A DNA stretch of 41,686 nt, from NCBI GenBank assembly GCA_905372875.1, contig CAJPQU010000001.1, positions 1-41,686 on the forward strand. Reading direction: 5' to 3'. The stretch is from an uncultured Schwartzia sp. (GTDB lineage: Bacteria > Bacillota > Negativicutes > Selenomonadales > Selenomonadaceae). Both the position numbers and the translations under genes were made by a program. Shown here piece by piece: positions 2,631-39,947 of the stretch (within the stretch, counting starts at the first letter, position 1; each line of letters begins with the position of its first letter). A model generated the notes under the pieces. That model made no database searches, was not told the origin of the DNA, and saw only the letters and a program-made list of their open reading frames with translations.

Positions 2631-4703
2631 ATGCAGGAATATGGGAGCGCGAATCTGCGCAACGTCGCCGTCGTCGGCCACGGGCGGGCCGGGAAGACGA
2701 GCCTGTTGGACGCTTGCCTGTTTAACGCCGGAGCGGTCAACAGGCTGGGAAATACCGCCAACGGATCGTCTTTTTTGGACGTCGAGCCGGAAGAAATCCG
2801 GCGCGGTTTTTCCATCGACAGCAAGCTGGTTGCCATAGAATGGCAGGGCTGCAAGCTGAATCTGCTGGATACGCCCGGCTACCCGGACTTCATCAGCGAA
2901 GTCAAGGGAGCGCTCACGGCGGCGGACTGCGCCCTCATTGTCATCTCAGCTCCCTCCGGCATTGAGATTGAAACGGAAAAAGACTGGCGGCTGGCGGAAG
3001 AAATGGCTCTTCCCCGAGCCTTCTTCGTCAATAAAATGGATCGGGAGCACGCGGACTTCCAGCAGGTAGTGGATGAGCTCCGCGTGCGTTTCGGCAAAGG
3101 CGTTGTCCCCGTCCAGCTTCCCCTCGGACAGGAATCCTCTTTTCAGGGCGTCATCGACCTTCTCACCATGAGCAGCAAATTCACCTCCCATGAGGAGGAA
3201 ACCATCGTCACGGGCATTCCAGAATATATGGACGAGGCGGTGGAAACGGCCCGGCAGGCGCTGGTGGAGGCCCTAGCGGACTTTAATGACACCCTCTTAG
3301 AGAAATTCTTAGACGGCGAGGATATTCCCCAGCACGAGATCGGGCAGGCGCTGTCCGACGGGATCGCCGCCGGGAAGGTATTCCCCGTATTCTGCGGGGC
3401 TGCGGCCCAGAATGTGGGGGTCCGAAAGCTCATGAACGGGATCATCTCCTATCTCCCCGCCCCGGGGAGCCGCAGCGCCATCGGTACCGAGCCGGGAAAA
3501 GAGGATACCCTTTTGGAACGCACTTTGACCGACCCCTTTTCCGCCCAGGTCTTTAAGACCGTCGTGGACCCATTCGTGGGGCGGCTGACGTTTCTGCGCC
3601 TGCGCTCCGGGACGCTGACTCATGACGACAGTGTGTATAACGTCAGCCGCGGCGCCATCGAACGCATCGGCGGCCTGTTCACCATGCAGGGCAACCAACA
3701 GATCAAGGTAACCCGCGCCCTTGCCGGGGATATCGTTGTAACGTCGAAACTCACCGCCACCCGCACCGGCGATACCTTGGCGGATAAGAACGCTCCCATT
3801 TGCTACGAGCCCATCGCCTACCCCGGCTCCATGCTGATCATGGCCGCCTACCCGAAGAAGAAAGGCGACGAGGAAAAGGCCTTCGGAGCGCTGGAAAAGG
3901 CGCAGGACGAAGACCCCACCATCGTCGTCTTTAAATTCCCGGAAACGAAGGAGACCCTCGTCCGGGCCCAGGGCGAGGTACAGATTGAGATATTAGGGGA
4001 GCGGCTGACCCGAAAATTCGGTGCGGAACTTGCGTTTCGCGAGCCGAAGGTGCCGTACCGCGAGACGATCCGAAAGTCGGTGAAAGCCGAGGGTAAGCAT
4101 AAAAAGCAGAGCGGCGGCCACGGCCAGTACGGCCATGTCTGGCTGGAGATCAGCCCCCAGCCCGCGGGAGAAGGGAACGCCTTCACCGAGACGATCTTCG
4201 GCGGCAGCGTGCCGCGCCAGTACGTCCCGGCGGTGGAGAAGGGGACGGCGGAGACGCTGGCCGGAGGCATCTTGGCGGGCTATCCCGTGGTAGACGTGAA
4301 AGTGAACCTCTGCGACGGCTCCTATCACACGGTGGACTCCTCCGAAGCCGCCTTTAAGGCCGCCACTGCCCTCGCCCTCCGCAAGGGGATCAAAGAAGCC
4401 GATCCCATACTCTTAGAGCCCATTTACAATATCTCCATTTCCGCCCCGGAATACTTCATGGGAGAGGTCATGGGGCAGCTGAACGCGAAGCGGGCACGCA
4501 TTTTAGGGATGGAGAGTCAGGGCCGCGATATAAGCGAAGTAAAGGCCCAGATCCCGGCTACGGAACTCTATAAATACGCCACCGACTTGCGGGCTCAAAC
4601 GAAGGGACGCGGTGTTTTCACCACAGAATTTTCCCACTACGAGGAAATGCCGCCGAAGATGGCGGAAAAAGTCATCGCCGCCTATCAGGAAGCACGGAAA
4701 TAA
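2631..4703 (+). CDS. Elongation factor G family translational GTPase (paralogue with a divergent P-loop)
   Basis: Start at the internal ATG 2631 after GAGGAGGG. G1 is GHGRAGKTS (canonical EF-G has AHIDAGKTT). G3 DTPG and G4 NKMD are present, with full-length EF-G domain II-V-like sequence. Confidence 0.9.
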   Translation: MQEYGSANLRNVAVVGHGRAGKTSLLDACLFNAGAVNRLGNTANGSSFLDVEPEEIRRGFSIDSKLVAIEWQGCKLNLLDTPGYPDFISEVKGALTAADCALIVISAPSGIEIETEKDWRLAEEMALPRAFFVNKMDREHADFQQVVDELRVRFGKGVVPVQLPLGQESSFQGVIDLLTMSSKFTSHEEETIVTGIPEYMDEAVETARQALVEALADFNDTLLEKFLDGEDIPQHEIGQALSDGIAAGKVFPVFCGAAAQNVGVRKLMNGIISYLPAPGSRSAIGTEPGKEDTLLERTLTDPFSAQVFKTVVDPFVGRLTFLRLRSGTLTHDDSVYNVSRGAIERIGGLFTMQGNQQIKVTRALAGDIVVTSKLTATRTGDTLADKNAPICYEPIAYPGSMLIMAAYPKKKGDEEKAFGALEKAQDEDPTIVVFKFPETKETLVRAQGEVQIEILGERLTRKFGAELAFREPKVPYRETIRKSVKAEGKHKKQSGGHGQYGHVWLEISPQPAGEGNAFTETIFGGSVPRQYVPAVEKGTAETLAGGILAGYPVVDVKVNLCDGSYHTVDSSEAAFKAATALALRKGIKEADPILLEPIYNISISAPEYFMGEVMGQLNAKRARILGMESQGRDISEVKAQIPATELYKYATDLRAQTKGRGVFTTEFSHYEEMPPKMAEKVIAAYQEARK

Positions 4704-4715
4704 AGGGATAGAGAA

Positions 4716-4748
4716 AACCGCCTCTCGGATAAAGAGGCGGCTTGTTTT
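4716..4748 (+). terminator. Rho-independent terminator after the EF-G paralogue
   Basis: CCGCCTCT / AGAGGCGG stem followed by CTTGTTTT. Confidence 0.7.
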
Positions 4749-4792
4749 AATGATATCCCTTACTTCCACAAATCCATCATCCCAAAGTGTCC

Positions 4793-5080
4793 CTACTTCT
4801 TTTGATTTTTCGTCATTTCCAGAGCGTTGTTGAGGAAAAATTCGCCGCCCATGGGGGAGGTGCAGTCCTTTTCCATGAGGACGTTTTTATTTTCATCCCG
4901 AAAGGTCAGGCAAAAGGCCTCGTCTGTGGGGGCCGACGCTCCTGAAATAGGCGTAACAAAAGCCGATACCCCCGGCGCGTAGTCGCGTCGGTAGTAGACT
5001 TCCCGGACCGGGTGGAGTCCTTTATCGTCCTCCCGCCGCTTAAAGCGCAATTTGAAGGCAAAAATATCGTCTAACCGCAT
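4793..5080 (-). CDS. Hypothetical protein
   Basis: Start at M13 of the ORF (MRLDDIF...), preceded by AGGAGG. No family recognised. Confidence 0.6.
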   Translation of the reverse strand: MRLDDIFAFKLRFKRREDDKGLHPVREVYYRRDYAPGVSAFVTPISGASAPTDEAFCLTFRDENKNVLMEKDCTSPMGGEFFLNNALEMTKNQKK

Positions 5081-7860: not shown

Positions 7861-9213
7861 GTGCGCGTCGTAATCGTGGGAGCGGGAAAATTAGGATACA
7901 GCATCGCCGAACTCTTATCCAACGAAGGGTACGAAGTGGTGATGATCGATCAGGATGAGACCCAGCTGGAAGCGGTGAAAAATACCCTGGACGTCCTGAC
8001 CATTCGGGCTAACGGAGCCAGCCCCGCCACCATGGCCGACGTGGAAGTGCGGGGGGCCGATCTTTTAATCGCGGTGACGGCGGTGGACGAGGTGAACATG
8101 ATCGCCTGTATCCTGGCGAAAAAACACAAGATCCGCCACACCATCGCCCGTATTCGGGACATAGAATTCGTCGCCGCGGAGGGCGGGTACCTGAAAAAAA
8201 CCTTCGACATCGACCTCATGTTGAACCCGGAATACATCACGGCCCAGGAAATCTATCGCATCCTCATGACAACGGCCGCCCTCAATGTAGAGGATTTTGC
8301 CAGCGGCAAGGTGCGCCTCTTCGAGACAAAGGTGCGCCGGGACTCGAAGATGGCCAACGTGCCCCTCAAGGACATGGATATGCCGGCGTCGGTCTTAGCG
8401 GGGATGATCTTCCGGGACCACCAGATGATCATCCCCCACGGCGACGATATTCTAAAGCCCGGGGATAACGCCTACTTCATCGGCGATCCAGCGGAGATCG
8501 AAAAGTTCAGCGCCCGCTTCGTTAAGCGCGAAGCCCGCCGGCTGGAACGGCTCATGATCATCGGCGCGGGACGTACCGGCCGAGCGCTGGCCACGATGTT
8601 TGAGCCGACGGATGTCAAGGTGAAGGTCATCGAAAAAGACAGCGAGCGCTGCCAGCGGATGGCGGATATGCTGCAAAACGGCATGGTAATTTCCGGCGAC
8701 GGCACGGACATTGACCTTCTCATGCAGGAGGGGATCCACGAAACGGACGTGGTGGTCTGCCTGACGGAGGACGATAAGCTGAACCTCATGCTGGCGCTTT
8801 TAGCTAAGCATCTGGGCGCACGGGAGACTGTGGTGCGGGTGGGGCGCAGCGAATATGTGGATCTCATGGAGAAGGTGGGGGTGGACATCGTCCTTTCGGC
8901 CCGGCTCCTATCCGCCAGCGAAGTGCTGGCCTTTGCCCGCCGGGGCGGCGTCGTGTCGGTCTCCCTCTTGGAAAGTGCCAAGGCGGAAGCGGTGGAGGTC
9001 ATCGTGCAGGAGGGAACGCCGGTGGTGGGGCATCCCTTAAAAGAAGTCCATCTCCCCCGGGAATGCCTCGTCTGCGCCTATGTGCGGGGCGAAGAGGCCG
9101 CCATCCCCAACGGCGACTCCGTTCTCCTCCCCGGAGACCGCGCCATTCTCTTCATCGAAACACAGTTTTCCCAGAAGGTCATCCAATACTTTAAGGGCAG
9201 GGATCGGGCATGA
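7861..9213 (+). CDS. trkA: Trk potassium uptake system NAD-binding subunit TrkA (tandem RCK)
   Basis: GTG 7861 follows GGAGGGG and puts the Rossmann motif VIVGAGKLG at the N-terminus. The ATG at 7840 has no RBS. A second GxGxxG (IIGAGRTG) lies mid-protein. Confidence 0.9.
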   Translation: MRVVIVGAGKLGYSIAELLSNEGYEVVMIDQDETQLEAVKNTLDVLTIRANGASPATMADVEVRGADLLIAVTAVDEVNMIACILAKKHKIRHTIARIRDIEFVAAEGGYLKKTFDIDLMLNPEYITAQEIYRILMTTAALNVEDFASGKVRLFETKVRRDSKMANVPLKDMDMPASVLAGMIFRDHQMIIPHGDDILKPGDNAYFIGDPAEIEKFSARFVKREARRLERLMIIGAGRTGRALATMFEPTDVKVKVIEKDSERCQRMADMLQNGMVISGDGTDIDLLMQEGIHETDVVVCLTEDDKLNLMLALLAKHLGARETVVRVGRSEYVDLMEKVGVDIVLSARLLSASEVLAFARRGGVVSVSLLESAKAEAVEVIVQEGTPVVGHPLKEVHLPRECLVCAYVRGEEAAIPNGDSVLLPGDRAILFIETQFSQKVIQYFKGRDRA

Positions 9214-21078: not shown

Positions 21079-22071
21079 TCAGGTGGTAAAGCGGCGGGAA
21101 ACCTCCCGCAAGAGCGTCTTTTTGCGCTCCACACTCTCCGTGCGCACTTCTCCCAGCGCTTCGACGATGCGGTCCAGATCCGCCTGATCCTTGAAATTGA
21201 TGACGATGCGGCTCTGGGTCATGCCCACATGAATATGTACCGGTGCGCCGAAGAACATTTTTAGTTTATCTTCCGCGTCCTCGATGAAAAATTCTTTCTC
21301 CTTCACCGTCACCGCCGGTTCCTTCAGCCACTCCACCGGATCTAAAAATTTCGGATCCTTTTTCAGCTTGGTCACCAGCTGCTCCGCTTCCCGGGCCGAA
21401 AGATTATGCCCAGCGATGTGATCTGCCGCCTTCTGCACCAATTCCGGCGTGGAAAGGGCCAGGAGCGGCCGGGCCTGCCCCATGAGCAGTACCCCCTGCA
21501 GCAAGCTCTCCTGCACCTTCTTCGGCAGCGCCAAGAGCCGCAGGATATTAGCGATGTGAGAACGGCTGGCCCCCACCTTTTCCGATAATTCTGCCTGCGT
21601 CAGCCCAAAGCGATCCATCAGCACCTGATAGGCCCGCGCTTCTTCGATAACGTTAAGATCCTCCCGCTGCACGTTCTCAATGATGGCCACTTCGGCCATT
21701 TCCAGCGGGTTAAAGACGCGCACAATGGCGGGGATCTCTTTCAGCCCGGCCAGTTTTGCCCCCCGGTAGCGGCGCTCCCCGGCGACGATCTCATACCCGT
21801 CCCCTGCCGGCCGTACTAAAATCGGCTGTAAAACCCCGTACTGCCGCACCGACGCCGCCAACTCCTCCATGGCCGCCTCATCAAAGGTCTGCCGCGGCTG
21901 CTCCGGATTCGGGTGGACCCGATCCATGGGGAGCGACTCCACCCTTTGCCCATGCACCCCCGCCGCATCAGGAGCCGTGCCGTCTATCGAAGGCGCAGGC
22001 GCCTCCCGCCATTTCGGTGCGGTGGGAAGAAGCGCCCCTAAGCCGCGCCCTAGGCCTTTCGTCTTAGCCAC
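21079..22071 (-). CDS. parB: Chromosome partitioning protein ParB/Spo0J
   Basis: GTG 22071 follows GGAGG, giving VAKTKGLGRGLGALL. ParB box GERRYRA-like (AGERRYRGA) and an HTH (GLTQAELSEKVGASRSHIAN). Overlaps the parA stop by 8 nt. Confidence 0.93.
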   Translation of the reverse strand: MAKTKGLGRGLGALLPTAPKWREAPAPSIDGTAPDAAGVHGQRVESLPMDRVHPNPEQPRQTFDEAAMEELAASVRQYGVLQPILVRPAGDGYEIVAGERRYRGAKLAGLKEIPAIVRVFNPLEMAEVAIIENVQREDLNVIEEARAYQVLMDRFGLTQAELSEKVGASRSHIANILRLLALPKKVQESLLQGVLLMGQARPLLALSTPELVQKAADHIAGHNLSAREAEQLVTKLKKDPKFLDPVEWLKEPAVTVKEKEFFIEDAEDKLKMFFGAPVHIHVGMTQSRIVINFKDQADLDRIVEALGEVRTESVERKKTLLREVSRRFTT

Positions 22072-22822
22072 GTTTTGCCACCTCCTTCGCCAACGCCATG
22101 TAAACTTCCGCCCCTTTCGCCTTCTCATCGTAAAAGACGGCCGGCATCCCGTAAGAAGGCGCTTCGCTGAGGCGCACCGTCCGGGGAATCACCGTATCAT
22201 ACACCTTATCGGGGAAATACTTTCGCACTTCTTCCACCACCTGCTGCGACAGATTCGTGCGGTAATCGTACATGGTGAGCAGGACGCCCGCCACCGTCAG
22301 GTTCGCATTCAGACTCTCCTGCACCAGTTTCAAGGTACTGAGGAGCGCCGTCAATCCCTCCAACGCGTAAAACTCGCACTGGATCGGCATCAAAAGCCCG
22401 TCCGCCGCCGTCAGGGAATTGAGATTCAAAAGGCCCAGGGAGGGAGGGCAGTCGATGATGATGAAATCATACGCGTCCCGCACCGTATCCAGCGCTTTCT
22501 TCAGGCGGAATTCCCGGCCTTCTGCCTGGGCCAGCTCGATCTCCGCCCCCGCCAAATTGATATTAGCCGGAAGAATATCCAATTTATACGCCGTGGTACG
22601 GATGGCTTCCCGGGGCGCCAGACCGTCCAGGATCACCTCGTACACCGTGGGCGTCAGCGTCCCCTTATCGAGGCCCACGCCGCTGGTGGCGTTGCCCTGG
22701 GGATCAAAATCCACCAGGAGAACTCGCTTCCCCAATATGCCAAGCCCGGCGCTCAGATTCACCGCCGTCGTCGTCTTGCCCACGCCGCCCTTTTGGTTGG
22801 CTACCGCTATAATTTTTGCCAA
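22064..22822 (-). CDS. parA: Chromosome partitioning ATPase ParA/Soj
   Basis: TTG start after GGGGTGAGAGG. Deviant Walker A NQKGGVGKTTT. Full-length, 252 aa. Candidate -10 TATAAT on the minus strand at 22872-22877. Confidence 0.95.
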   Translation of the reverse strand: MAKIIAVANQKGGVGKTTTAVNLSAGLGILGKRVLLVDFDPQGNATSGVGLDKGTLTPTVYEVILDGLAPREAIRTTAYKLDILPANINLAGAEIELAQAEGREFRLKKALDTVRDAYDFIIIDCPPSLGLLNLNSLTAADGLLMPIQCEFYALEGLTALLSTLKLVQESLNANLTVAGVLLTMYDYRTNLSQQVVEEVRKYFPDKVYDTVIPRTVRLSEAPSYGMPAVFYDEKAKGAEVYMALAKEVAKRG

Positions 22823-22939
22823 CGCCTCTCACCCCGCCCTTCTCTCAATTTTCGGCTTACGGTTTGTTTCTATTATAGCGAAACTTTTTCGGAAGATAAA
22901 GAGCCTTCGGCCTCATTTCCCAAATTCTTTCGATAAAAA

Positions 22940-22955
22940 TGTTTCACGTGAAACA
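22940..22955. promoter_or_regulatory. parS site 1 (perfect palindrome)
   Basis: TGTTTCACGTGAAACA, embedded in a perfect 34-bp palindrome at 22931-22964. About 63 bp upstream of the candidate parA -10. Confidence 0.9.
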
Positions 22956-23224
22956 TTTTTATCGAAAAACGCCTCGCCAATCAGCTTCCATATGTCCCGC
23001 GCCGCCGAAGCTTCACCAAAAACACTTCCAGTTTTATCTCCCTTTGATTCGTCACCCCGCAAAGATCCTACCGGGGACAATCCTTCTCATAAAGCCAGCC
23101 ATGTTATTTTGGTTCCCGTAAAGGCGCCGGCGACAAGGGAAGAGGAATTACAAAACGCGCGCTGCGCATGGAGAAAGGTTGGCGTGTTGTGCAGGCTTTC
23201 GGATGCGGTCTCACATTTTTCCGA

Positions 23225-23240
23225 TGTTTCACGTGAAACA
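23225..23240. promoter_or_regulatory. parS site 2 (perfect palindrome)
   Basis: TGTTTCACGTGAAACA within the 24-bp palindrome CCGATG...CATCGG. Confidence 0.9.
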
Positions 23241-23301
23241 TCGGAAAAATACGCAGCTTTATAGAAAAGTCTTCCGGTCGGAGCTGCTTTCTTTTGGAAA
23301 A

Positions 23302-23317
23302 TGTTTCACGTGGAACA
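23302..23317. promoter_or_regulatory. parS site 3
   Basis: TGTTTCACGTGGAACA, the reverse complement of the B. subtilis-type TGTTCCACGTGAAACA. Confidence 0.88.
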
Positions 23318-23413
23318 TTTTCCAGTTAAACGCCGAAGAAAAATTTTACATTACCAGCGGCGCGTCAAATCATATCTCGGGATCCCATCTTCGAAAAAAT
23401 TCTCACGCAAAAA

Positions 23414-23429
23414 TGTTTCACGTGGAACA
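23414..23429. promoter_or_regulatory. parS site 4
   Basis: TGTTTCACGTGGAACA. Confidence 0.88.
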
Positions 23430-23632
23430 ATATACTATCCCTCGCTTTCCGTCATGAAGGCCGCCTCGACAAACTGCGCCAGGGAAGCGCTCCCTTTCGC
23501 CGATCTTTTCCACGGCCCCCGATAAAACCCCATGCAGCACGCTCACACCCCATCCAAAAGCTTCTTTTTCTTTCGTTTTTCCGTCGTGTATTCGCCTAAA
23601 TTGATTTTTCTTTTCCCCTGTTTCTTTTAAAA

Positions 23633-23648
23633 TATTTCACGTGAAACA
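23633..23648. promoter_or_regulatory. parS site 5 (one mismatch)
   Basis: TATTTCACGTGAAACA. Confidence 0.75.
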
Positions 23649-23706
23649 TTTTCTTGGAAGTTGTTTGTCATAGCAGCGGGGGAGTTATTGGGTCGTGGGG
23701 ACGCAG

Positions 23707-23722
23707 TGTTTCACGTGGAACA
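23707..23722. promoter_or_regulatory. parS site 6
   Basis: TGTTTCACGTGGAACA. Lies at the end of the inverted duplicated segment. Confidence 0.88.
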
Positions 23723-23836
23723 TTGGATTTTTATTTCCTCTGTTCGATAGGACAGGAACCGCGGGGGACGTCAACGAACGCCGGACGAGGCAGTCCGTTG
23801 TTAGGGCAAACGTTTTTTAAACGGCTCGGCCTGGAA

Positions 23837-23852
23837 TGTTTCACGTGAAACA
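23837..23852. promoter_or_regulatory. parS site 7 (perfect palindrome)
   Basis: TGTTTCACGTGAAACA, with a 39-bp centre-to-centre distance to site 8. Confidence 0.9.
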
Positions 23853-23875
23853 AAAAATTCAGATCACCTTCTCAA

Positions 23876-23891
23876 TGTTTCACGTGAAACA
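23876..23891. promoter_or_regulatory. parS site 8 (perfect palindrome)
   Basis: TGTTTCACGTGAAACA. Confidence 0.9.
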
Positions 23892-24175
23892 TTATTTCCT
23901 ATTCCCATCAAAAACAACAGAACTTCTTTGTCAAAAGTATTCCCATCAACATTTTCTCGGTATGCCTCATGATATTTTGAGAGAGCCTCCAGCTTTCGAT
24001 AAGCACCTCATTTTGTCCATACGGCCTCGCTAACCGGTGCCTTCCCACCGTCCCACCCAAACTCCTCCAATATTTTCTTTTTTTCGGCCACCTTTTCCGC
24101 TAAAATTAATTCCCTTTGTCTGTAGAACCTATCCTATGTTCTCCGTGAAATGAAAAAATTTTCCCCGTCACAAAA

Positions 24176-24191
24176 TGTTTCACGTGAAACA
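24176..24191. promoter_or_regulatory. parS site 9 (perfect palindrome)
   Basis: TGTTTCACGTGAAACA. A degenerate relic lies 39 bp upstream at 24137-24152. The site is 39 bp upstream of the TTGACG -35 of the next gene. Confidence 0.9.
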
Positions 24192-24229
24192 TTTTTATCG
24201 CCGCCTCGCCATCGCCGACCATCTTCCAT

Positions 24230-24258
24230 TTGACGCTTTGCCATATAGGCATTACAAT
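24230..24258 (+). promoter_or_regulatory. Candidate promoter of the methionine synthase activation-domain gene
   Basis: TTGACG (24230-24235), 17 nt, TACAAT (24253-24258). Confidence 0.5.
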
Positions 24259-24298
24259 AGATGCATCTTTATATAAAGGATATAAAGGCGGTGTTCTT

Positions 24299-25012
24299 AT
24301 GCCAATCTATAACGCACCGCTGCCAAAAGTGGACGCGGCGGAAACACGGCGCTATGCAGGGCTGAAAAGCGCCGTGTTTGATGAAGAAAAGATTCGCCAG
24401 GCAGCGGATGAAGCGGCGCTTTTAGCCGCTCCCCGGGGCATCTGGCAGCAATATCCATACGACAGCGAACGTCATACCGTCGTCGCTGCACCGGAATTTC
24501 CCATTGTCGGCCGCAGCATTGAGAAACATCTCCAAGGCTGTGAAGCGGTGATCATCTTGGCGGCGACGGTAGGGGAAAGCATTGAGGAAGCTGTAACCCA
24601 GCACTTTAACGCGGGGGAGTACGCCTACGCCGTTCTCCTTGACGCCGCCGCCACTGCCGCCGTGGAGCAGGTGGCCGACGCCATGGAAAAAACCATGCGT
24701 CCCGCCGCCGCCCGCTCCGGCTGCACCATGCGTTGGCGCTACAGCCCCGGCTACGGTGACTGGCCTCTCACCGAGCAGCCCCATCTCATCCGACTGTCCC
24801 AGGCAGAGGAAATCGGCATTCACCTGACGGAATCCCTCATGCTCTGGCCGAGGAAATCCATCACCGCCATCATCGGCCTCGCAAAAAAAGATATCGCGGC
24901 CCCCAAAAAGCCATCTCCCTCCGGCTGTGCCGTCTGCGCCAAAACGGACTGCCTCGCCCGGCGTTCGCTGACGGGCTCCGTCGGTTCCTGTCCTCTTGAG
25001 CAGGAGCCATAA
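24299..25012 (+). CDS. Stand-alone vitamin-B12-dependent methionine synthase activation (AdoMet-binding) domain protein
   Basis: Start at M24 of the ORF (MPIYNAPLPK...). RWRYSPGYGDWPL and LTESLMLWPRKSITAIIGL resemble the MetH reactivation domain. Lies next to a MetH that lacks this domain. Confidence 0.85.
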   Translation: MPIYNAPLPKVDAAETRRYAGLKSAVFDEEKIRQAADEAALLAAPRGIWQQYPYDSERHTVVAAPEFPIVGRSIEKHLQGCEAVIILAATVGESIEEAVTQHFNAGEYAYAVLLDAAATAAVEQVADAMEKTMRPAAARSGCTMRWRYSPGYGDWPLTEQPHLIRLSQAEEIGIHLTESLMLWPRKSITAIIGLAKKDIAAPKKPSPSGCAVCAKTDCLARRSLTGSVGSCPLEQEP

Positions 25013-25023
25013 AAATTCCGCAA

Positions 25024-25039
25024 TGTTCCACGTGAAACA
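25024..25039. promoter_or_regulatory. parS site 10
   Basis: TGTTCCACGTGAAACA, identical to the classical B. subtilis consensus. Lies 12 bp after the stop of the activation-domain gene. Confidence 0.9.
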
Positions 25040-25337
25040 TTTTTCCTCGAGACGCGATGATGGATTGATCCACATCCTGTTCCGGACAATCCTTTTTCCC
25101 AGCAGCACCAGCGTGCACGGACCGTGCGCCGCTCCGCCTAAAGCTGCTTCCGACAGCGATATTTTCCCATGTTCCAGGGAAACGTTTCCTGCCCTTGGTA
25201 CACCCTGCCACCGCCCATTTTGCCGATGATTCCGGCGTTTCGGCCATCCGCTCCCGCAATTTTCCACGGTTCGGTTTCCCGTAAAACGACTCGTAAAAAA
25301 TCCTTTTCTTCTCCGTGCCAAATCACACAATAAAAAA

Positions 25338-25353
25338 TGTTTCACGTGAAACA
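25338..25353. promoter_or_regulatory. parS site 11 (perfect palindrome)
   Basis: TGTTTCACGTGAAACA with A/T-run flanks, 88 bp upstream of the metH ATG. Confidence 0.9.
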
Positions 25354-25440: not shown

Positions 25441-27813
25441 ATGATCCATATTTTTGACGGTGCCACCGGAACTATGCTGCAGGCCGCCGGATTGAAAGCG
25501 GGGGAATGCCCCGAACTCGTCAACCTGGAACGTCCGGAGATGATGAAAAAAATCCACGAAGCCTACGTCGCGGCGGGATCCACCATTTTAGAAACGAATA
25601 CCTTCGGCGGCTGCGCCCTGAAATTAGAGCACTACGGCCTCGCGGGAAAGGCCCGGGACATCAACATCGCTGCCGTCCGCATCGCCAAAGAAGCCGCTGC
25701 CGGGCGGGCAGAAGTGGCCGGTTCCATGGGGCCGACGGGGCGTTTTATCACCCCTTTGGGGGACTTAGACTTTGAGGAGGCCTATCAAACCTACGCCGAG
25801 CAGGCCGCCGCCTTGGAAGAAGGGGGCGCCGACTACATCCTCATCGAAACCTCCATCGACATCCAGGAGACCCGGGCGGCGCTCCTGGCCGCCAAAGAAG
25901 CCACCAGGCTGCCTGTCATCTGCCAGCTTTCCTACAGCGAGGACGGGCGCACCGTCACCGGTACCGATCCAGAGACCGCCGCCGTCACGCTGGACGCCTT
26001 AGGGGCGGACATCATCGGGGTGAATTGCTCCTTGGGGCCGGAGCAGCTTCTTCCCATCGTCAAACTCCTCGCCCAAAATACCGCCAAGCCCATCAGCGTC
26101 CAGCCCAACGCCGGACTGCCCCAATTCGTCAACGGAAAGACCGTCTTTCCCATGGGGCCGGAGGACTTCGCCCGCTGGGTTCCAGATCTCATCGCCGCCG
26201 GGGCGACCTATCTGGGCGGCTGCTGCGGCACCACGCCGGAACACATACGAGCCATCGCCGCCGCGGCCGCTCAATGCCCCGAAGCCAAGCGGATTCCGCT
26301 TTCTCCCCGACTCCGCCTCACCAGCCGCAGCCGGACGGTAGTCATCGATCCGCAGCTGCCTCCCGTTCTCATCGGCGAGCGCATCAACCCGACAGGGCGT
26401 AAAAAATTAGCGGCAGAAATTAAAGACGGCTCCCTTCTCTCCGTCAAGAAGGAAGCCATCGCTCAAAGCCGCGCCGGGGCCGGTATCTTGGACGTCAACA
26501 TGGGCGTCGCCGGCATCGACCAAGCGGCAGCCATGAAGCGGGCCGTCATGGAAATTGCCCAGGTGACCACCACGCCCCTCGCCATCGACACCAGCGACGC
26601 CGCCGCGTTGGAAGCGGGGCTGCGGGTCTACCCCGGCCGCGCCCTCATCAATTCCGTCAGCGCCGAGCCGGAGCGCATTGACCGCTTCCTCCCGTTGGCG
26701 AAAAAATACGGCGCCGCCATCCTCTGCCTGCCCCTTACCGCCGACGGCGTTCCCCAGACGGCGCCGGAACGTCTCGCCGCTCTCTCCACCATCCTGGAGG
26801 CCGCCCGAAAAATCGGCCTCACGGACGGCGATTTCCTTCTGGACGGCCTCGTCATGACCGTCGCCGCCGAGCCGAAGGCCGCCGGGGAGACGCTGCAAAC
26901 CCTGCGCCTCTACCGCGAGCACTTCGGCTACCCCGCCACTATGGGGCTCAGCAACATCTCCTACGGCCTGCCAAACCGCCCCCTCATCAACAGCACCTTC
27001 TTCGCCATGTGCCTCGCCGCGGGACTGGACGCGCCCATCATGAACCCTTACGACGAAGAAATGCAGCGGGCCCTCACCGCCAGCGCCGCCCTCTTAGGGT
27101 ACGACCCCAACGGCCGCGCCTACGCGAAGAAAATGGCCGCACCGGAGGGCGAGAAAAAGGCCGCCGAAGCCCCATCGGCCGATCTTAACCCCATCGACGC
27201 CATCAAGGCCGCCGTCAAAGACGGGGCCAAGGAAATGATGGACGAATTGGTAACCCGGGCGGTCAAGGCAGGGATTTCCGCCAACGATATCACGGAAAAA
27301 GCCCTCACCGCCGCCATGAACGAAATCGGCGAAGGCTTCGGCGCAGGCACCATCTTTCTGCCGGAAGTACTCCTTTCTGCCGAAGCGATGAAGACCGCCT
27401 TCGATAAGCTCAGCGAACTTCTTCCCTCCGCGGAAAAGGAAAAACGCGGCACCGTCGTCTTAGCCACGGTAAAGGGCGACGTTCACGACCTGGGCAAGAA
27501 CATCGTCGGTGCGCTTTTAGCGAACAGCGGCTTTACCGTCATCGACTTAGGCAAGGACGTCCCCAGTGACGAGATCGTCCGGGCCGCGACGGAACATGAC
27601 GCCGACATCGTGGGACTCAGCGCCCTCATGACCACCACCATGATCGAAATCGATCAGGTGGTAAACGATCTCAAAGCCATCCACCACCGCGCCCACATCA
27701 TCGTCGGCGGTGCCGCGGTCACCGAGGACTACGCCCGGGAGGCCGGCGCCGACTACTACGCCCCCGACGGCGTAGCCGCCGTCCGCCTGGCCCGAAAGAT
27801 CACCGAGAAATAA
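25441..27813 (+). CDS. metH: B12-dependent methionine synthase lacking the activation domain
   Basis: 790 aa. Hcy-binding domain (GGCCGTTPEHI), pterin-binding domain (GERINPTGRK) and B12-binding domain (DVHDLGKNIV, GLSALMTTT). RBS AAAGGAG. Confidence 0.93.
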   Translation: MIHIFDGATGTMLQAAGLKAGECPELVNLERPEMMKKIHEAYVAAGSTILETNTFGGCALKLEHYGLAGKARDINIAAVRIAKEAAAGRAEVAGSMGPTGRFITPLGDLDFEEAYQTYAEQAAALEEGGADYILIETSIDIQETRAALLAAKEATRLPVICQLSYSEDGRTVTGTDPETAAVTLDALGADIIGVNCSLGPEQLLPIVKLLAQNTAKPISVQPNAGLPQFVNGKTVFPMGPEDFARWVPDLIAAGATYLGGCCGTTPEHIRAIAAAAAQCPEAKRIPLSPRLRLTSRSRTVVIDPQLPPVLIGERINPTGRKKLAAEIKDGSLLSVKKEAIAQSRAGAGILDVNMGVAGIDQAAAMKRAVMEIAQVTTTPLAIDTSDAAALEAGLRVYPGRALINSVSAEPERIDRFLPLAKKYGAAILCLPLTADGVPQTAPERLAALSTILEAARKIGLTDGDFLLDGLVMTVAAEPKAAGETLQTLRLYREHFGYPATMGLSNISYGLPNRPLINSTFFAMCLAAGLDAPIMNPYDEEMQRALTASAALLGYDPNGRAYAKKMAAPEGEKKAAEAPSADLNPIDAIKAAVKDGAKEMMDELVTRAVKAGISANDITEKALTAAMNEIGEGFGAGTIFLPEVLLSAEAMKTAFDKLSELLPSAEKEKRGTVVLATVKGDVHDLGKNIVGALLANSGFTVIDLGKDVPSDEIVRAATEHDADIVGLSALMTTTMIEIDQVVNDLKAIHHRAHIIVGGAAVTEDYAREAGADYYAPDGVAAVRLARKITEK

Positions 27814-30150: not shown

Positions 30151-30206
30151 GTTATCCACAAAGCTATCCACAAACAGGTGTTTTTTTCCGTTTTTTTGTG
30201 GATAAC
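30151..30206. promoter_or_regulatory. Ectopic DnaA-box cluster (3 boxes)
   Basis: TTATCCACA (30152-30160), CTATCCACA (30164-30172) and the inverted TGTGGATAA (30197-30205). The outer 12-mers GTTATCCACAAA / TTTGTGGATAAC form a perfect inverted repeat. Confidence 0.7.
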
Positions 30207-30303
30207 TTCCCTCCGCTGCGCCCTCATCCTGCCGCTATTTTCGGACGCATCATCCCCCCAGGCCTGTATAGACGCCTGGGGATAATTTTTCTCCTTGCGC
30301 AGT

Positions 30304-30340
30304 AAAAAAGCCGTACCATATAAGATGGCACGGCTTTTTT
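30304..30340. terminator. Bidirectional terminator between convergent purH-like and 30346..31077 genes
   Basis: AGCCGTaCCAT / ATGGcACGGCT stem flanked by A6 and T6. Confidence 0.8.
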
Positions 30341-30345
30341 ATCGG

Positions 30346-31077
30346 TTACAACGAGATGCGCAGAACGTCCTCCAAAAAATCTGTCAGCGAAGTCGACGTG
30401 GCCTTATCTTTGGGATTGCTCATCTTCCTCATGATCCGGTTGTAGAGGGAATCCTCCACGCTCCCCGGCACCAATTCTTCCCAGGCCGCGGCGCTGTATT
30501 TCCCCGTAGCCACATCATTTTGAGGGCGTCCGGTGACTTCCAGCTCCGCCAGGAACTGAATCTGGCGCTGAGTGCGGCGCATGTAGTAATGCTCCAAATA
30601 ATAGTGTCCCATGTAGAGATCGCCAGCCGCTTCTATCGTCTCGGCCCGGGCGGCGTCGGCGATGGGGATGAGGCGGATCCAGACGTCCAGGATCTTCTCG
30701 TCGCTATAGGGCATTTTCCGCCAGCGCAGATTCTCCGAATCCATATAATACACATAGGTATCGTCCTCGTAAACGATCGTGTACTTTTGCAGCTCTTTCT
30801 TTTTGTGTTTCTTTTCCCGCTTCTCCCGCGCCTTTTGTTCCTTTTTCTCGCGCTTTTCCTGCGCTTTCCTTTCCTTTTCTTCCCGCTTCAGCTGTTCTTT
30901 TTCCTCCGGCGTCAGCGCCTTCTTATCCGCCGCGGCACCGTCCTCCTGTCGCGCGGCGGCAACTTTCGCCTCACCGGCGCCGGCCGTCGTCTCTTCTGCC
31001 GCCAACGCCTGGATAGGCAGCACCCACAGCGCCGCCGTGGCCAAAAGTCCGTACGCGATCCTTCTATATCCCTTCAT
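30346..31077 (-). CDS. Secreted hypothetical protein with a Lys/Glu-rich charged linker
   Basis: Start at M3 (MKGYRRIAY...), 9 nt after AGGAGG. Signal peptide ends in ALAAEE. KE-rich stretch (EKERKAQEKREKKEQKAREKREKK), then a globular C-terminal domain. Confidence 0.75.
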   Translation of the reverse strand: MKGYRRIAYGLLATAALWVLPIQALAAEETTAGAGEAKVAAARQEDGAAADKKALTPEEKEQLKREEKERKAQEKREKKEQKAREKREKKHKKKELQKYTIVYEDDTYVYYMDSENLRWRKMPYSDEKILDVWIRLIPIADAARAETIEAAGDLYMGHYYLEHYYMRRTQRQIQFLAELEVTGRPQNDVATGKYSAAAWEELVPGSVEDSLYNRIMRKMSNPKDKATSTSLTDFLEDVLRISL

Positions 31078-31203
31078 GTCCATGCCTCCTGCTTTTTACG
31101 CCCCTGTTCTGTTACGTAAAATATTCGCGTTCGTGAGGAAATCTCCTGTCAGGGGCAAAAATTTTCCCCAAAGACTACATCTCAGCCCCAGCGCCCCTTT
31201 TTA

Positions 31204-34004: not shown

Positions 34005-35387
34005 TCACTTACCGATGCAGAAGCGGGAAAAGATTTCATCAATGATATCTTCGCCCACCGTCTCCCCGATGATTTTGCCCAGCGCCGTCCACGCCGCCCG
34101 CAGATCGATGGTGATGAAGTCCTCGCCCAGGCCTTCCTCCATGGTCTCGCAAGCCGCCTGGAGATGGGCCGCCGCTTCCTTGAGATGAGCCGCCTCCCGG
34201 GCCGTGGCCACGAAAGCGCTCTCCTCCTGCGGTCCTCCCGGGCCGTAAACTTTCTCCCGCACCGCTTCCCCCAGCTCTTCCATGCCCGCGCCCGTCTTGA
34301 CGGAAAGGGACAGCACCTGCCGTCCCGGCGCGTGGGCCGAAAGTGCCTGCGGTGTCAAAAGGGGCGGACGGTCCGCCTTTGTCAAAAGCAGCAGGACATC
34401 CTTTTTCCCCTTCAATAAAGCAAAGATCGCCTCATCTTCCGCCGTCAAGGGCACAGCCGAATCAAAGAGCGCCAAAACGAGAGACGCCTGCTCCACGGCC
34501 TGCCTGGCCCGCTGGATTCCGATCTTCTCCACGTCGTCCGCCGCCTCCCGGATCCCGGCGGTATCCACGAGACGCAGGGGAACGCCGCCCACTTCCGCGT
34601 ACTCTTCGATGCTGTCCCGGGTGGTGCCGGGAATATCGGTGACAATGGCCCGTTCCTCCCGCAGGAGCGCGTTCAAGAGGCTGGACTTTCCCACGTTGGG
34701 GCGCCCCACGATGGCGGTGGTGAGACCGTCCCGCAGGATGCGCCCGGCGCTTTCCGTGGCCAGCATTTCCTGGATATCCTCCAAGATCCGCGTCACGTTG
34801 AGATGAACATCCTCCGCCACCACGTCGTCCACATCGTCCTCGGGAAAATCGATGGTCACTTCCAGATGGGCGATGAGTTCCAGAATCATCTGCCGGGCGG
34901 CGCGGATGCGCTCGGAAAAGCGCCCGGAAAGGTGACCCGCCGCCAAGCGCAAGGAAGCCTCCGTCTTGGCCGCGATCACGTCCATCACCGCCTGGGCCTG
35001 TGCCAGATCGAGACGTCCGTTCAAAAAAGCCCGCTTCGTGAATTCCCCCGGCTCCGCCAGCCGGGCGCCGTAAGAAAGGGCCAGCGACAGTGCCCGGCGC
35101 AGGATCACGCTGCCTCCGTGGCACTGGATCTCCGCCACGTCTTCCCGGGTATAGGAATGGGGGGCGCGCATGAGAAGCGCGATGGCCTCATCCACCGGCG
35201 CGTCACCTTCTACGATATTCCCGTAAATCGCCCGATGAGAAGGGGCTTCCGCCAGATTACCGCCGCGCCGGGGCCGAAACATCCGATCCGCCACGGCGAC
35301 CGCCTCCGCCCCGGAAAGGCGCAGAATACCGATGCCGCCTTCCCCTAACGGGGTGGCCACAGCGGCGATGGTCTCTTCTTGTTCCAC
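34005..35387 (-). CDS. mnmE: tRNA modification GTPase MnmE (TrmE)
   Basis: 460 aa. GTG start after GGGAGGTG. G domain GRPNVGKSSL and DTAG. C-terminal FCIGK. Confidence 0.96.
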   Translation of the reverse strand: MEQEETIAAVATPLGEGGIGILRLSGAEAVAVADRMFRPRRGGNLAEAPSHRAIYGNIVEGDAPVDEAIALLMRAPHSYTREDVAEIQCHGGSVILRRALSLALSYGARLAEPGEFTKRAFLNGRLDLAQAQAVMDVIAAKTEASLRLAAGHLSGRFSERIRAARQMILELIAHLEVTIDFPEDDVDDVVAEDVHLNVTRILEDIQEMLATESAGRILRDGLTTAIVGRPNVGKSSLLNALLREERAIVTDIPGTTRDSIEEYAEVGGVPLRLVDTAGIREAADDVEKIGIQRARQAVEQASLVLALFDSAVPLTAEDEAIFALLKGKKDVLLLLTKADRPPLLTPQALSAHAPGRQVLSLSVKTGAGMEELGEAVREKVYGPGGPQEESAFVATAREAAHLKEAAAHLQAACETMEEGLGEDFITIDLRAAWTALGKIIGETVGEDIIDEIFSRFCIGK

Positions 35388-37704: not shown

Positions 37705-38236
37705 CGCCCTGCCTCCTTTCTTCTGCTCGTGTAAGAAAGCGCTCCTCCGAAGGGCCCCCTCCGGACTATCGTCCGATAAAAAACGAATTTGTCTTTCTCC
37801 GGCGTTTCCTTCCTTTATCCTGCGCAGCAGGCCGGAAAGCCGCATTCAAGATTATAGCCCACCCCCGGCGGAGTGTCAAGGTTTCCGCTCTCGGCCGGTG
37901 GGCCTTCTCATGTTTTCTTTTTCTCTTTCAATACTATATATAGTTTTTCTTTCTTGATCCATCCCCTCATATAGTGTGAGAGAAAAATTTCCCCCGGTCT
38001 CGGTCTTTTAGACAAAATTCTTTATTGCGTCCTGTGGATAAGTTTGATACACTTACGTTAATTCCCTGCGGCCCTCTTTTCCGGCGAAACGGTAAAATGC
38101 AGAAAGCCCTTGATTTTTCAGGATTTTCGTTCCCTTTTTAAGCTGTTTCGCGCCGAATTTTAATAAGTTATACACAATTGTATATAACTCTGTGGATAAG
38201 AGGGCTGGAAGACGGTGTAAGAAAGGATTTTTTCCC
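37705..38236. other. oriC left part (rpmH-dnaA intergenic): DnaA boxes and an AT-rich tract
   Basis: Perfect TGTGGATAA at 38033-38041 and 38191-38199. TTATACACA at 38168-38176. AT-rich tract around 37911-37956. Gene orientation switches here. Confidence 0.6.
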
Positions 38237-39652
38237 ATGGAAGAAAAAGAACTTGAAGAAATCTGGACAAAAATTCTCGTCAATCTGCGGGAGAACATCG
38301 CCGAAAGCGCTTGCGACCGCTGGCTTTCTCCCGTCCAGCCCAAAGCCTTGGACGAAGCGACCTTTTACCTGGAAGCGCCCAATGAATTCGCTAAAAATTA
38401 TATCCAAGACCGCTACATTCCCTTTATTAAAGACGCGGGAAAGGATGTCATCGGCCGCGAGGTGGAAATCCGCCTGACGTCGGCTCAGGGCGGCGGTCTC
38501 TACGATGAGGTACGCACGGAAAAGAACGGGCAGACGGTATTGATGGCAGCAGAACCGATGCCAAAAAATACCGTGACTGCCTCCACGGGCGAAGGGTCCT
38601 TCCTGACGCCCATCGCGCCGGGCGATCATTCTTCCTTAAACGCACACTATACTTTCGATAAGTTCGTCATCGGGAATTCCAACCGCTTCGCCCACGCGGC
38701 GGCCCTGGCTGTTTCCGAATCCCCCGGCGCCGTCTATAATCCTCTCTTTATGTACGGCGGCGTAGGCCTCGGAAAGACGCATCTCATGCACGCCATCGGC
38801 AACCAGATCCTCAAAAACAACCCGAACATGCGCGTGCTCTACATTTCCAGCGAGAAGTTTACCAACGAATTCATCAATTCCATCGTCAAGGGAAACCCGG
38901 AAGCTTTTCGACAGAAATACCGGACCATCGACGTTCTCTTAGTGGACGATATCCAATTTCTCTACAAAAAAGAACAGACCCAGGAAGAGTTTTTCCACAC
39001 CTTCAATGCCCTTTTCGACGCGCGAAAGGCCATCATCCTGTCCAGCGACCGCCATCCCCGCAACATTCAGACCCTGGAGGACCGCCTGCGGTCGCGCTTT
39101 GAATGGGGCCTTATCACCGACGTCCAGGCTCCGGATCTGGAAACGCGCATCGCCATTTTAAAGAAAAAAGCCATCATGGAAGAGCTGGATGTTCCCAACG
39201 ACGTGCTCACCTTCATCGCCAGTCGCATCGACAACAATATCCGGGAATTGGAAGGGGCGCTGACCCGGGTCGTAGCCTACGCCCAGCTGAACGGCCGGCC
39301 CATCACTACCGATTTGGTCAGCGAGGCGATGAAGAACGTCTATCCCACCCAACGTACCACCATCATCACGTTGGAACTCATTCAAAAACTCATCTGTTCC
39401 TACTTCAATATCACCAGCGAGGACATCATGTCCAAAAAACGCACGAAGGAAATCGCCTTCGCCCGGCAGGTAGCCATGTATCTCTGCCGGGAAATGACGG
39501 ACAGCTCTCTCCCGCAAATCGGCGAATATTTCGGCGGCCGCGATCATACGACGGTGCTCCACGCCTATAAGACCATCGAGGAAGCCCAGAAAAACGACCA
39601 AAAGCTCAACGCATCCATTCAGGAACTGATGCAGCGGCTGAGCCACATGTGA
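38237..39652 (+). CDS. dnaA: Chromosomal replication initiator protein DnaA
   Basis: Start at M16 of the ORF (MEEKELEEIW...); the ORF-track start would overlap a perfect DnaA box. Walker A GGVGLGKTHL. Domain IV EIAFARQVAMYLCRE and GGRDHTTVLHA. Confidence 0.96.
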   Translation: MEEKELEEIWTKILVNLRENIAESACDRWLSPVQPKALDEATFYLEAPNEFAKNYIQDRYIPFIKDAGKDVIGREVEIRLTSAQGGGLYDEVRTEKNGQTVLMAAEPMPKNTVTASTGEGSFLTPIAPGDHSSLNAHYTFDKFVIGNSNRFAHAAALAVSESPGAVYNPLFMYGGVGLGKTHLMHAIGNQILKNNPNMRVLYISSEKFTNEFINSIVKGNPEAFRQKYRTIDVLLVDDIQFLYKKEQTQEEFFHTFNALFDARKAIILSSDRHPRNIQTLEDRLRSRFEWGLITDVQAPDLETRIAILKKKAIMEELDVPNDVLTFIASRIDNNIRELEGALTRVVAYAQLNGRPITTDLVSEAMKNVYPTQRTTIITLELIQKLICSYFNITSEDIMSKKRTKEIAFARQVAMYLCREMTDSSLPQIGEYFGGRDHTTVLHAYKTIEEAQKNDQKLNASIQELMQRLSHM

Positions 39653-39947
39653 CCGTTTTCCTTGTGGATACAAGAGCGCATATCCTGTCGATGACCTGTG
39701 CATAAAAAAAAGAAAGGGTTGTCCCTGTGGATCATGTGGATAACCCTTTTCTCTTTATCAACAGGTTATCCAACCCCTTCCTCCTGATGTTACGGCGGCG
39801 TATTCCTCTTTTCCACATTTTCACAGAGCATACGACTACGACTACGATCTTTTATTCTATACGATGTCTTAATAAAAAGTCGGGGATAACTTCTTTCTCC
39901 CCGCTTTTTCTCCATTCTATTTTCCATTCATGAAAGAGGGGTCCTTT
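39653..39947. other. oriC right part (dnaA-dnaN intergenic): DnaA boxes, candidate DnaA-trios and DUE
   Basis: TGTGGATAC 39663, abutting TGTGGATCA 39726 and TGTGGATAA 39735, TTATCCAAC 39776, TTTTCCACA 39809. Then (TACGAC)x2-TACGAT at 39831-39848 and AT-rich sequence at 39849-39880. Confidence 0.7.

Follow-up and report, generated by a model that had tools for sequence, protein, structure and literature searches.

Why the number of parS sites varies between bacteria is a stated open question (PMC7333895), and so is what drives parS clustering over evolution, or how a centromere-like region expands (PMC5815017). Both questions are raised by contig CAJPQU010000001.1 of an uncultured Schwartzia sp., the 41,686-bp stretch of DNA analysed here (the window), in which eleven copies of parS, the site recognised by the partition protein ParB, crowd into 2.41 kb beside the genes parA and parB. 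Is this a genuine chromosomal centromere, and how did it come to hold so many sites? Our answer, to which we give a probability of roughly 0.85, is that we are looking at the centromere of the chromosome of a Selenomonadaceae-like member of the Negativicutes, with eleven parS sites beside parAB near the replication origin (oriC), that it has recently expanded in this lineage from a two-site module, and that the cores of its sites are constrained. A literature search for parS work in Negativicutes returned none.

Eleven parS sites beside parAB in the origin region

The window was scanned for the parS motif TGTTTCACGTGAAACA with up to two and then up to three mismatches, the chance level being taken from dinucleotide-preserving shuffles. 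A parS site was defined as a 16-bp palindrome fitting tGTTNCACGTGAAACa. Eleven matches with at most one mismatch, all fitting the palindrome, were found between 22940 and 25353 (Table 1); the shuffles gave 0.00 sites at up to two mismatches and 0.06 at up to three. Six sites are perfect and five carry one mismatch, four of these reading TGTTTCACGTGGAACA or its reverse complement and one TATTTCACGTGAAACA. No further copy with two or three mismatches occurs in the whole window, so its parS population is sharply bimodal, either near-perfect or absent. The coordinates, sequences and spacings are exactly those of the original prediction, which had been made from the letters of the window without database searches.

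As that prediction had also stated, nine sites lie in a non-coding stretch of about 1.25 kb (22940–24191, 1252 bp), between the divergent parA and a methionine-synthase activation-domain-like gene (the activation-domain gene hereafter), and 63 bp separate site 1 from the candidate parA −10. All 11 are intergenic, distributed over three adjacent intergenic regions, with none inside parB. The start-to-start spacings are irregular (39 to 848 bp) and, by hand arithmetic, show no consistent multiple of 10.5 bp and hence no helical phasing. Conservation of the flanks is strong out to 20 bp, where 19 of 22 half-sites have AA/TT, but drops to 12–14 of 22 at positions −3 and −4, which falls short of the extension to about 24 bp proposed earlier for most copies. 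The perfect palindrome centred on site 1, given before as 34 bp, measures 40 bp (22928–22967).

Isolated half-parS heptamers (GTTYCAC, either strand) are confined almost entirely to the array, 21 of 22 lying within the eleven full sites; a single stray copy (35381–35387) compares with about 8 expected from dinucleotide shuffles. This depletion may mean that stray ParB binding is selected against near the origin, or may be an effect of composition.

The genes parA and parB form an operon with an 8-nt overlap, followed by DUF4446, SprT-like and FliD_C-like genes. ParA matches the families AAA_31 (5.6e-67) and CbiA (1e-28), as the partner ATPase should, and the adjacent ParB matches Pfam ParB_N (4e-33) and HTH_ParB (3e-33), as expected of the cognate binding protein. 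Among solved structures of chromosomal ParB proteins it aligns, at E~1e-52 and with the GERRYR motif conserved, to Bacillus subtilis Spo0J (6sdk), Thermus thermophilus Spo0J (1vz0) and 6t1f, presumably Caulobacter ParB; its best structure matches are chains 7bnk, 7o0n and 7bnr, labelled in the database only as 'ParB family protein', which we take to be Myxococcus xanthus ParB. The closest named ParB relatives are metagenome-assembled genomes (MAGs) labelled Schwartzia sp. (Selenomonadaceae, Negativicutes), so the label 'Firmicutes', first attached to the consensus, holds in the broad sense only.

Past the array, the plus strand carries the activation-domain gene, metH and a purH-like gene; beyond these the minus strand carries rsmG, mnmG, mnmE, jag and yidC, then dnaA and dnaN. 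The array lies 12.7–15.1 kb from oriC and its context is the chromosomal origin region, in agreement with the earlier description of canonical chromosomal parS beside canonical parAB, 13–15 kb from oriC.

Table 1. The parS array and its surroundings in the window (positions in nucleotides from the first letter of the stretch)
Feature	Coordinates	Strand	Remarks
parB	21079..22071	-	spo0J-type, 330 aa; LGRGLGALL N-terminal motif, GERRYR CTP-binding motif, helix-turn-helix (HTH)
parA	22064..22822	-	soj-type Walker ATPase, 252 aa; TTG start
Candidate parA −10	22872..22877	-	TATAAT, read by eye; weak −35
parS site 1	22940..22955		perfect; nearest to parA; 63 bp from candidate −10
Lineage-specific gene-free spacer	22960..24171		~1.2 kb; holds sites 2–8 and the relic
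parS site 2	23225..23240		perfect; core of a 32-bp perfect palindrome; without L095 orthologue
parS site 3	23302..23317		TGTTTCACGTGGAACA; without L095 orthologue
parS site 4	23414..23429		TGTTTCACGTGGAACA; orthologue is L095 site 2014
parS site 5	23633..23648		TATTTCACGTGAAACA; perfect in L088; orthologue is L095 site 1806
parS site 6	23707..23722		one mismatch; within inverted duplicate of site 10; without L095 orthologue
Inverted duplicate	23707..23812	-	of 24931-25039; 81% over 110 nt
parS site 7	23837..23852		perfect; first of 39-bp pair; orthologue is L095 site 1711
parS site 8	23876..23891		perfect; second of 39-bp pair; without L095 orthologue
Decayed parS relic	24137..24152		TGTTCTCCGTGAAATG; 39 bp from site 9; L095 counterpart at 1444
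parS site 9	24176..24191		perfect; 108 bp upstream of activation-domain gene, 39 bp upstream of its −35
Promoter-like site of activation-domain gene	24230..24258	+	TTGACG-17-TACAAT
Methionine-synthase activation-domain-like gene	24299..25012	+	237 aa; inside the array, flanked by sites 9 and 10
parS site 10	25024..25039		TGTTCCACGTGAAACA; 12 bp past activation-domain gene stop codon
parS site 11	25338..25353		perfect; 88 bp upstream of metH start codon
metH-like B12-dependent methionine synthase	25441..27813	+	790 aa; outer array boundary
oriC region	38033..39817		dnaA 38192-39652; DnaA-box clusters 38033-38199 and 39663-39817

Duplication footprints within the array

Alignment of the array with itself revealed three kinds of copied segment. 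The inverted duplicate (Table 1) contains the last ~22 codons of the activation-domain gene together with parS site 10, and the peptide TDCLVRRSLTS..GSCPIEQ can still be read from its minus strand; judged from this alignment, it is a gene fragment co-copied with its parS. A two-site module with 39-bp spacing is present twice (23836–23896 and 24136–24196, 77% over 64 nt). The pair geometry noticed in the original prediction is thus repeated at the relic and site 9, and the decayed copy at 24137 is real, given this paralogous alignment and the less decayed copy in a relative (below). Finally, direct repeats at 22936–22979 and 24172–24211 (89% over 44 nt) bound the lineage-specific insert, site 9 plus its 28-bp flank being a direct repeat of site 1. 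These footprints show that the array grew by short segmental duplications of 44–110 bp, direct and inverted, each carrying a parS and some flank. A tandem duplication of the whole activation-domain gene was considered and rejected, as no more of it than the last ~22 codons can be recognised in the spacer.

The word 'iterated', used in the original prediction, does not apply as it would to a plasmid: the array has no tandem structure, its spacing is irregular and the sequences between sites are unique; Tandem Repeats Finder reported no parS array, only an 11-nt and a 9-nt repeat, each in two copies and unrelated to parS. The spacer has a GC content of 0.46 compared with ~0.58 overall, no open frame of more than 111 codons, and seven small open reading frames (ORFs) without a significant Pfam hit (E<=1). 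Rfam gave nothing in the array region, and one tRNA elsewhere in the window. The spacer was also considered as the remnant of a GNAT acetyltransferase gene, which the 86% relative carries in its place, but tblastn found nothing there. Nor do the parS hairpins look like terminators, a terminator scan giving 5 sites against 4.2 expected.

Long perfect palindromes surround parS in the window (22928–22967, 40 bp; 23217–23248, 32 bp) and in relatives (L097 4531–4566, 36 bp; L086 7414–7445, 32 bp; L095 2217–2252, 36 bp). Their arms vary from site to site beyond the AAAA/TTTT flank, which suggests repeated 'correction' by template switching at the parS hairpin, not a shared extended recognition sequence.

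Site number rises among close relatives

Relatives were found by a ParB homologue search, and parS sites were counted in the syntenic metH-to-parA interval of 20-kb pieces of their genomes. This comparison of the parA-upstream region, which the original prediction had called for, gives 2, 3, 3, 6, 7 and 11 sites with rising ParB identity. At 48% identity (L097, L098) there are two sites 4.6 kb apart, and at 57% (L091, L092) three sites in a different synteny. Three are also found at 80–82% (L096, L090), two of them paired at a 35-bp spacing directly upstream of parA, and here the counterpart of the spacer is only ~140 bp. Six sites are present at 86% (L086, a Schwartzia MAG, with the GNAT gene in the spacer's place), seven at 90% (L095, two of them degenerate, with a non-coding spacer of ~1 kb) and eleven at 99–100% (L088 and the window). 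One relative with 56% ParB identity, L093, has no parS in its 20 kb.

Flank comparison assigns L095 orthologues to window sites 1, 4, 5, 7 and 9 and to the relic, and none to sites 2, 3, 6 and 8. At least four sites were therefore gained in the window lineage after the split, or lost in L095. The parA-side flank of site 1 is orthologous to that of the parA-proximal site in L095, L086, L090 and L096. The relic is less decayed in L095, where it reads TGTTTCCTGTGAAACA and lies 39 bp from its partner site; the decayed copy at 24137 indicates that parS sites are born and die. The parsimonious reading of the series is that an ancestral module of two sites, lying between parA and the divergently oriented methionine-synthase genes, expanded step by step, the direction of change pending a proper tree.

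A second strain supports the array and points to constraint on its cores

An independent metagenome assembly, L088 (ENA ERZ773017), is 97.5% identical to the window over 7.9 kb, and its ParB is 99% identical. It contains all 11 parS in unchanged order, with site 5 perfect, which shows that the array is not an assembly artefact. The two strains differ at 66 of 1904 intergenic nt, compared with only 1 of 176 nt in parS cores (~6 expected, Poisson P~0.016). Sites of the array are conserved in relatives (L088, L095, L086, L090 and L096) and constrained relative to their flanks, and this comparison of aligned cores and spacers shows what is most readily read as purifying selection on the former.

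Five short-read Logan contigs (L001–L005) encoding an identical ParA all stop 2 nt before site 1 (positions 1–18 correspond to window 22955–22957), and most contigs with close ParB relatives are only 1–4 kb long. We attribute both to the 40-bp palindrome, which breaks k=31 assembly graphs. Long palindromes thus break short-read assemblies at the centromere, and surveys based on MAGs probably undercount dense parS arrays.

Divergence between the two strains is uneven. The activation-domain gene is 7.1% diverged, with 17 amino-acid changes, compared with 1.5–2.4% for parA, parB and metH, and its differences concentrate at both ends, by the parS sites (24304–24403 and 24882–24985). The 3' cluster (24882–24985) extends into the segment of which 23707–23812 is the inverted copy, and this hints at gene conversion or recombination tracts.

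Density compared with other chromosomes and known systems

A background survey covered 80 diverse parA loci of GTDB species representatives, with up to 10 kb of flank on each side; distant relatives, with up to 64% ParA identity, are among the matches listed. Under the Firmicutes consensus the maximum was 3 sites per 2.5 kb, and with the Y/R-degenerate core one locus, that of Myxococcus sp. Y35 (16 sites in 2.46 kb), exceeds the window. The earlier view that the density is exceptional is therefore borne out against this broad background, with Myxococcus set apart. Dense arrays do exist in other lineages. A metagenome scan for three tightly spaced parS gave at least 120 loci, a sample selected for three or more close sites and hence silent on frequency. 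It includes 17 parS in 1.44 kb of a chromosomal array (L199), 15 in ~1 kb immediately upstream of dnaA-dnaN (L105), 14 within 0.85 kb close to ftsH (L126), 17 across jag-rsmG-parAB (L137, L144) and 8 between rsmG and parA (L161). Most of these arrays have short, quasi-regular spacing (33–60 bp), whereas that of the window is looser and irregular, with traceable duplication footprints. The density of the window is rare in an unselected sample (~1 in 80), neither unprecedented nor confined to plasmids, and exceptional for its clade. A 649-codon open frame without Pfam match runs through the parS array of L199 (2285–4234, minus strand); it is probably spurious, held open by stop-free repeats.

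The array is accordingly one of clustered chromosomal parS of a known type (Myxococcus, Caulobacter) and not a new system. M. xanthus has 24 parS upstream of parAB, ~30 kb from the origin (Harms et al. 2013, PMC3778016). The window, with 11 sites in 2.41 kb, likewise packs ten or more parS into a few kb upstream of chromosomal parAB. In both, the sites are irregularly spaced and lie close to oriC, though not at it; 9 of the 11 sites of the window fall within 1.25 kb, as do 11 of the 16 in Myxococcus sp. Y35. The window differs in belonging to the Negativicutes (Bacillota) rather than the Myxococcota and in abutting the parA promoter, whereas the Myxococcus array starts 3.7 kb from parA and has a GC-richer variant of the consensus. 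We know of no stepwise expansion series among close relatives for Myxococcus; the value of the present locus is comparative, in a traceable series with visible duplication footprints. Caulobacter crescentus also has a clustered chromosomal centromere beside parAB, its five strongest parS lying within 5 kb in one ~10 kb ParB domain ~8 kb from the origin (Tran et al. 2018, PMC5815017). That cluster is several-fold less dense and validated by chromatin immunoprecipitation sequencing (ChIP-seq), whereas the window array is known from sequence alone.

The window shares with B. subtilis an identical 16-bp consensus and the same type of ParB (Spo0J), with a GERRxR CTPase motif. The consensus is said to go back to Lin and Grossman in 1998, and B. 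subtilis reportedly has about 10 sites. Several of these lie inside genes, including spo0J. The dispersed arrangement contrasts with the window, in which all parS are intergenic, within 2.4 kb and absent from parB; the four strongest B. subtilis sites are ~5, 13 and 39 kb apart (PMC5815017).

Dense arrays had been taken as more typical of plasmid centromeres, a premise that is only partly right, since dense chromosomal clusters are known in M. xanthus, in Caulobacter and in metagenomes. Plasmid iteron centromeres, such as sopC of F, consist of regular tandem repeats. Like sopC, the array would offer many ParB-binding sites, here predicted ones, in 1–2 kb of non-coding DNA beside a par operon. 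Unlike sopC, it has no regular head-to-tail unit, its spacings range from 39 to 848 bp, its spacers are unique and its context is a chromosomal origin; origin synteny and the lack of any plasmid or phage match for the spacer speak against extrachromosomal residence or derivation.

Proposed function and competing explanations

If the array works as these systems do, each 16-bp palindrome would be a recognition site for ParB dimers, which would then bind CTP, form closed clamps and slide away. Eleven such sites in 2.4 kb would feed one contiguous ParB domain, loading faster than from one site, and this domain would be the cargo moved by ParA, with SMC loading there probable. The proposed faster loading agrees with single-molecule work in vitro, in which the loading rate and condensation force of B. 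subtilis ParB increase with parS number (PMC8299390), and high-capacity loading at the array is plausible by this analogy. In Caulobacter, transposon sequencing (Tn-seq) showed that new parS are tolerated mainly beside the native cluster (PMC5815017), which would account for the local persistence of parS duplicates.

Several points weigh against the reading of the region as a recently expanded centromere with constrained sites. The core-conservation test is modest (P~0.016) and concerns one strain pair, and the relic at 24137 and the two degenerate L095 sites indicate that selection on individual sites is not absolute. A single parS is enough for segregation in several model species (PMC7022226, PMC8299390), so most sites of the window may be redundant. 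The parS count covers 41.7 kb of the genome and not a genome-wide total, and we infer ParB occupancy and a dosage benefit at the array by analogy with other systems.

We tentatively propose, with rather less than even confidence, a bacterial centromere caught expanding (2, 3, 6, 7 and 11 sites as ParB identity climbs from 48% to 100%), in which duplications are seeded at palindromes, decay proceeds in parallel, and the expansion is adaptive, through faster clamp loading or a larger partition complex; if this is true, the clade is a natural system for the questions of parS number and clustering. It is also possible, though short of probable, that genuine ParB-binding sequences proliferated neutrally or mechanistically and that the extra copies bring no benefit: in a permissive intergenic zone, duplication and template switching would occur readily at palindromes and short repeats, and extra parS would be harmless only beside the centromere. 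The sufficiency of one parS in model species, the tolerance of added sites mainly near a native cluster (PMC5815017), the relic and degenerate copies, and the concentration of strain differences at gene ends abutting parS all suit such proliferation, as do the long perfect palindromes (40, 32 and 36 bp), whose arms, differing by site, have the pattern of palindrome-correcting template switching. Set against it, all 11 sites are within one mismatch, with no intermediates at two or three; between two strains their cores have diverged ~6-fold less than the spacers; site number climbs monotonically along the lineage, without fluctuation; and similar or larger arrays arose independently in other lineages, suggesting a recurrent advantage.

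The remaining explanations fare worse. The sites could be operators at which bound or spreading ParB represses parAB (autoregulation) and the embedded methionine-synthase genes, with segregation secondary. Sites 1, 9 and 11 do lie 40–90 bp upstream of promoters or start codons, and the placing of parS beside parA and the divergent met genes is conserved throughout the family; yet no parS overlaps a core promoter, seven sites occupy 1.2 kb without a gene or convincing promoter to regulate (3 promoter sites in the scan against 1.9 expected), and chromosomal ParB usually affects parS-adjacent genes little, with limited exceptions (reviewed in PMC7022226). We consider this unlikely, and the strong parAB autoregulation suggested in the original prediction, a pure inference, is speculative, site 1 standing upstream of the core promoter. 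It is very improbable that the array is an integrated plasmid or phage centromere, that is, foreign DNA with its own partition sites. The 1.2-kb insert is indeed lineage-specific and lower in GC than its surroundings, but in distant blastn mode the spacer matches none of 72,556 plasmid and 50,697 phage records, it holds no mobile-element genes and no longer ORF than stated above, the sites follow the chromosomal consensus recognised by the family of the adjacent ParB, and parts of the insert copy neighbouring chromosomal sequence while others recur in the 90% relative. The array was almost certainly not created during assembly, by collapse or expansion of repeats or by a chimera: the k=31 contigs ending 2 nt before site 1 do mark the region as hard to assemble, but a different strain reproduces the order of all 11 sites, unique spacers leave no tandem repeat to miscount, and relatives hold orthologous subsets of the sites.

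Neighbouring genes and further features of the region

The candidate parA −10 was not called by a consensus promoter scan. Exact look-up found no identical protein on record for the product of the activation-domain gene. Just upstream of the ribosome-binding site (RBS) region of this gene, a 9-bp perfect tandem duplication (ATATAAAGG twice, 24271–24288) is present as a single copy in L088.

Four DnaA boxes, of which two are perfect (TTATCCACA), form a cluster (30152–30285) in the intergenic region that separates the purH-like gene from an unannotated 274-aa ORF. It lies 8 kb from dnaA and is distinct from the two clusters flanking dnaA. Syntenic clusters occur in L086 (2681–2949) and L090 (4442–4487), and the cluster may be DnaA-titrating or regulatory. 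Between it and rsmG, a conserved ORF of ~240–270 aa without a Pfam family (30295–31119, plus strand) has orthologues in L086 (2024–2734) and L090 (3508–4257) and shows no ParB-family signal; in many Firmicutes a noc or second parB-like gene stands at this position.

L086 carries two features that the window lacks (4341–4917 and 8484–8966): a BrnT-toxin-like gene pair, located between purH and metH, and the GNAT acetyltransferase gene, which separates parA from the activation-domain gene. In this clade, the intergenic regions next to the centromere are hotspots for small insertions.

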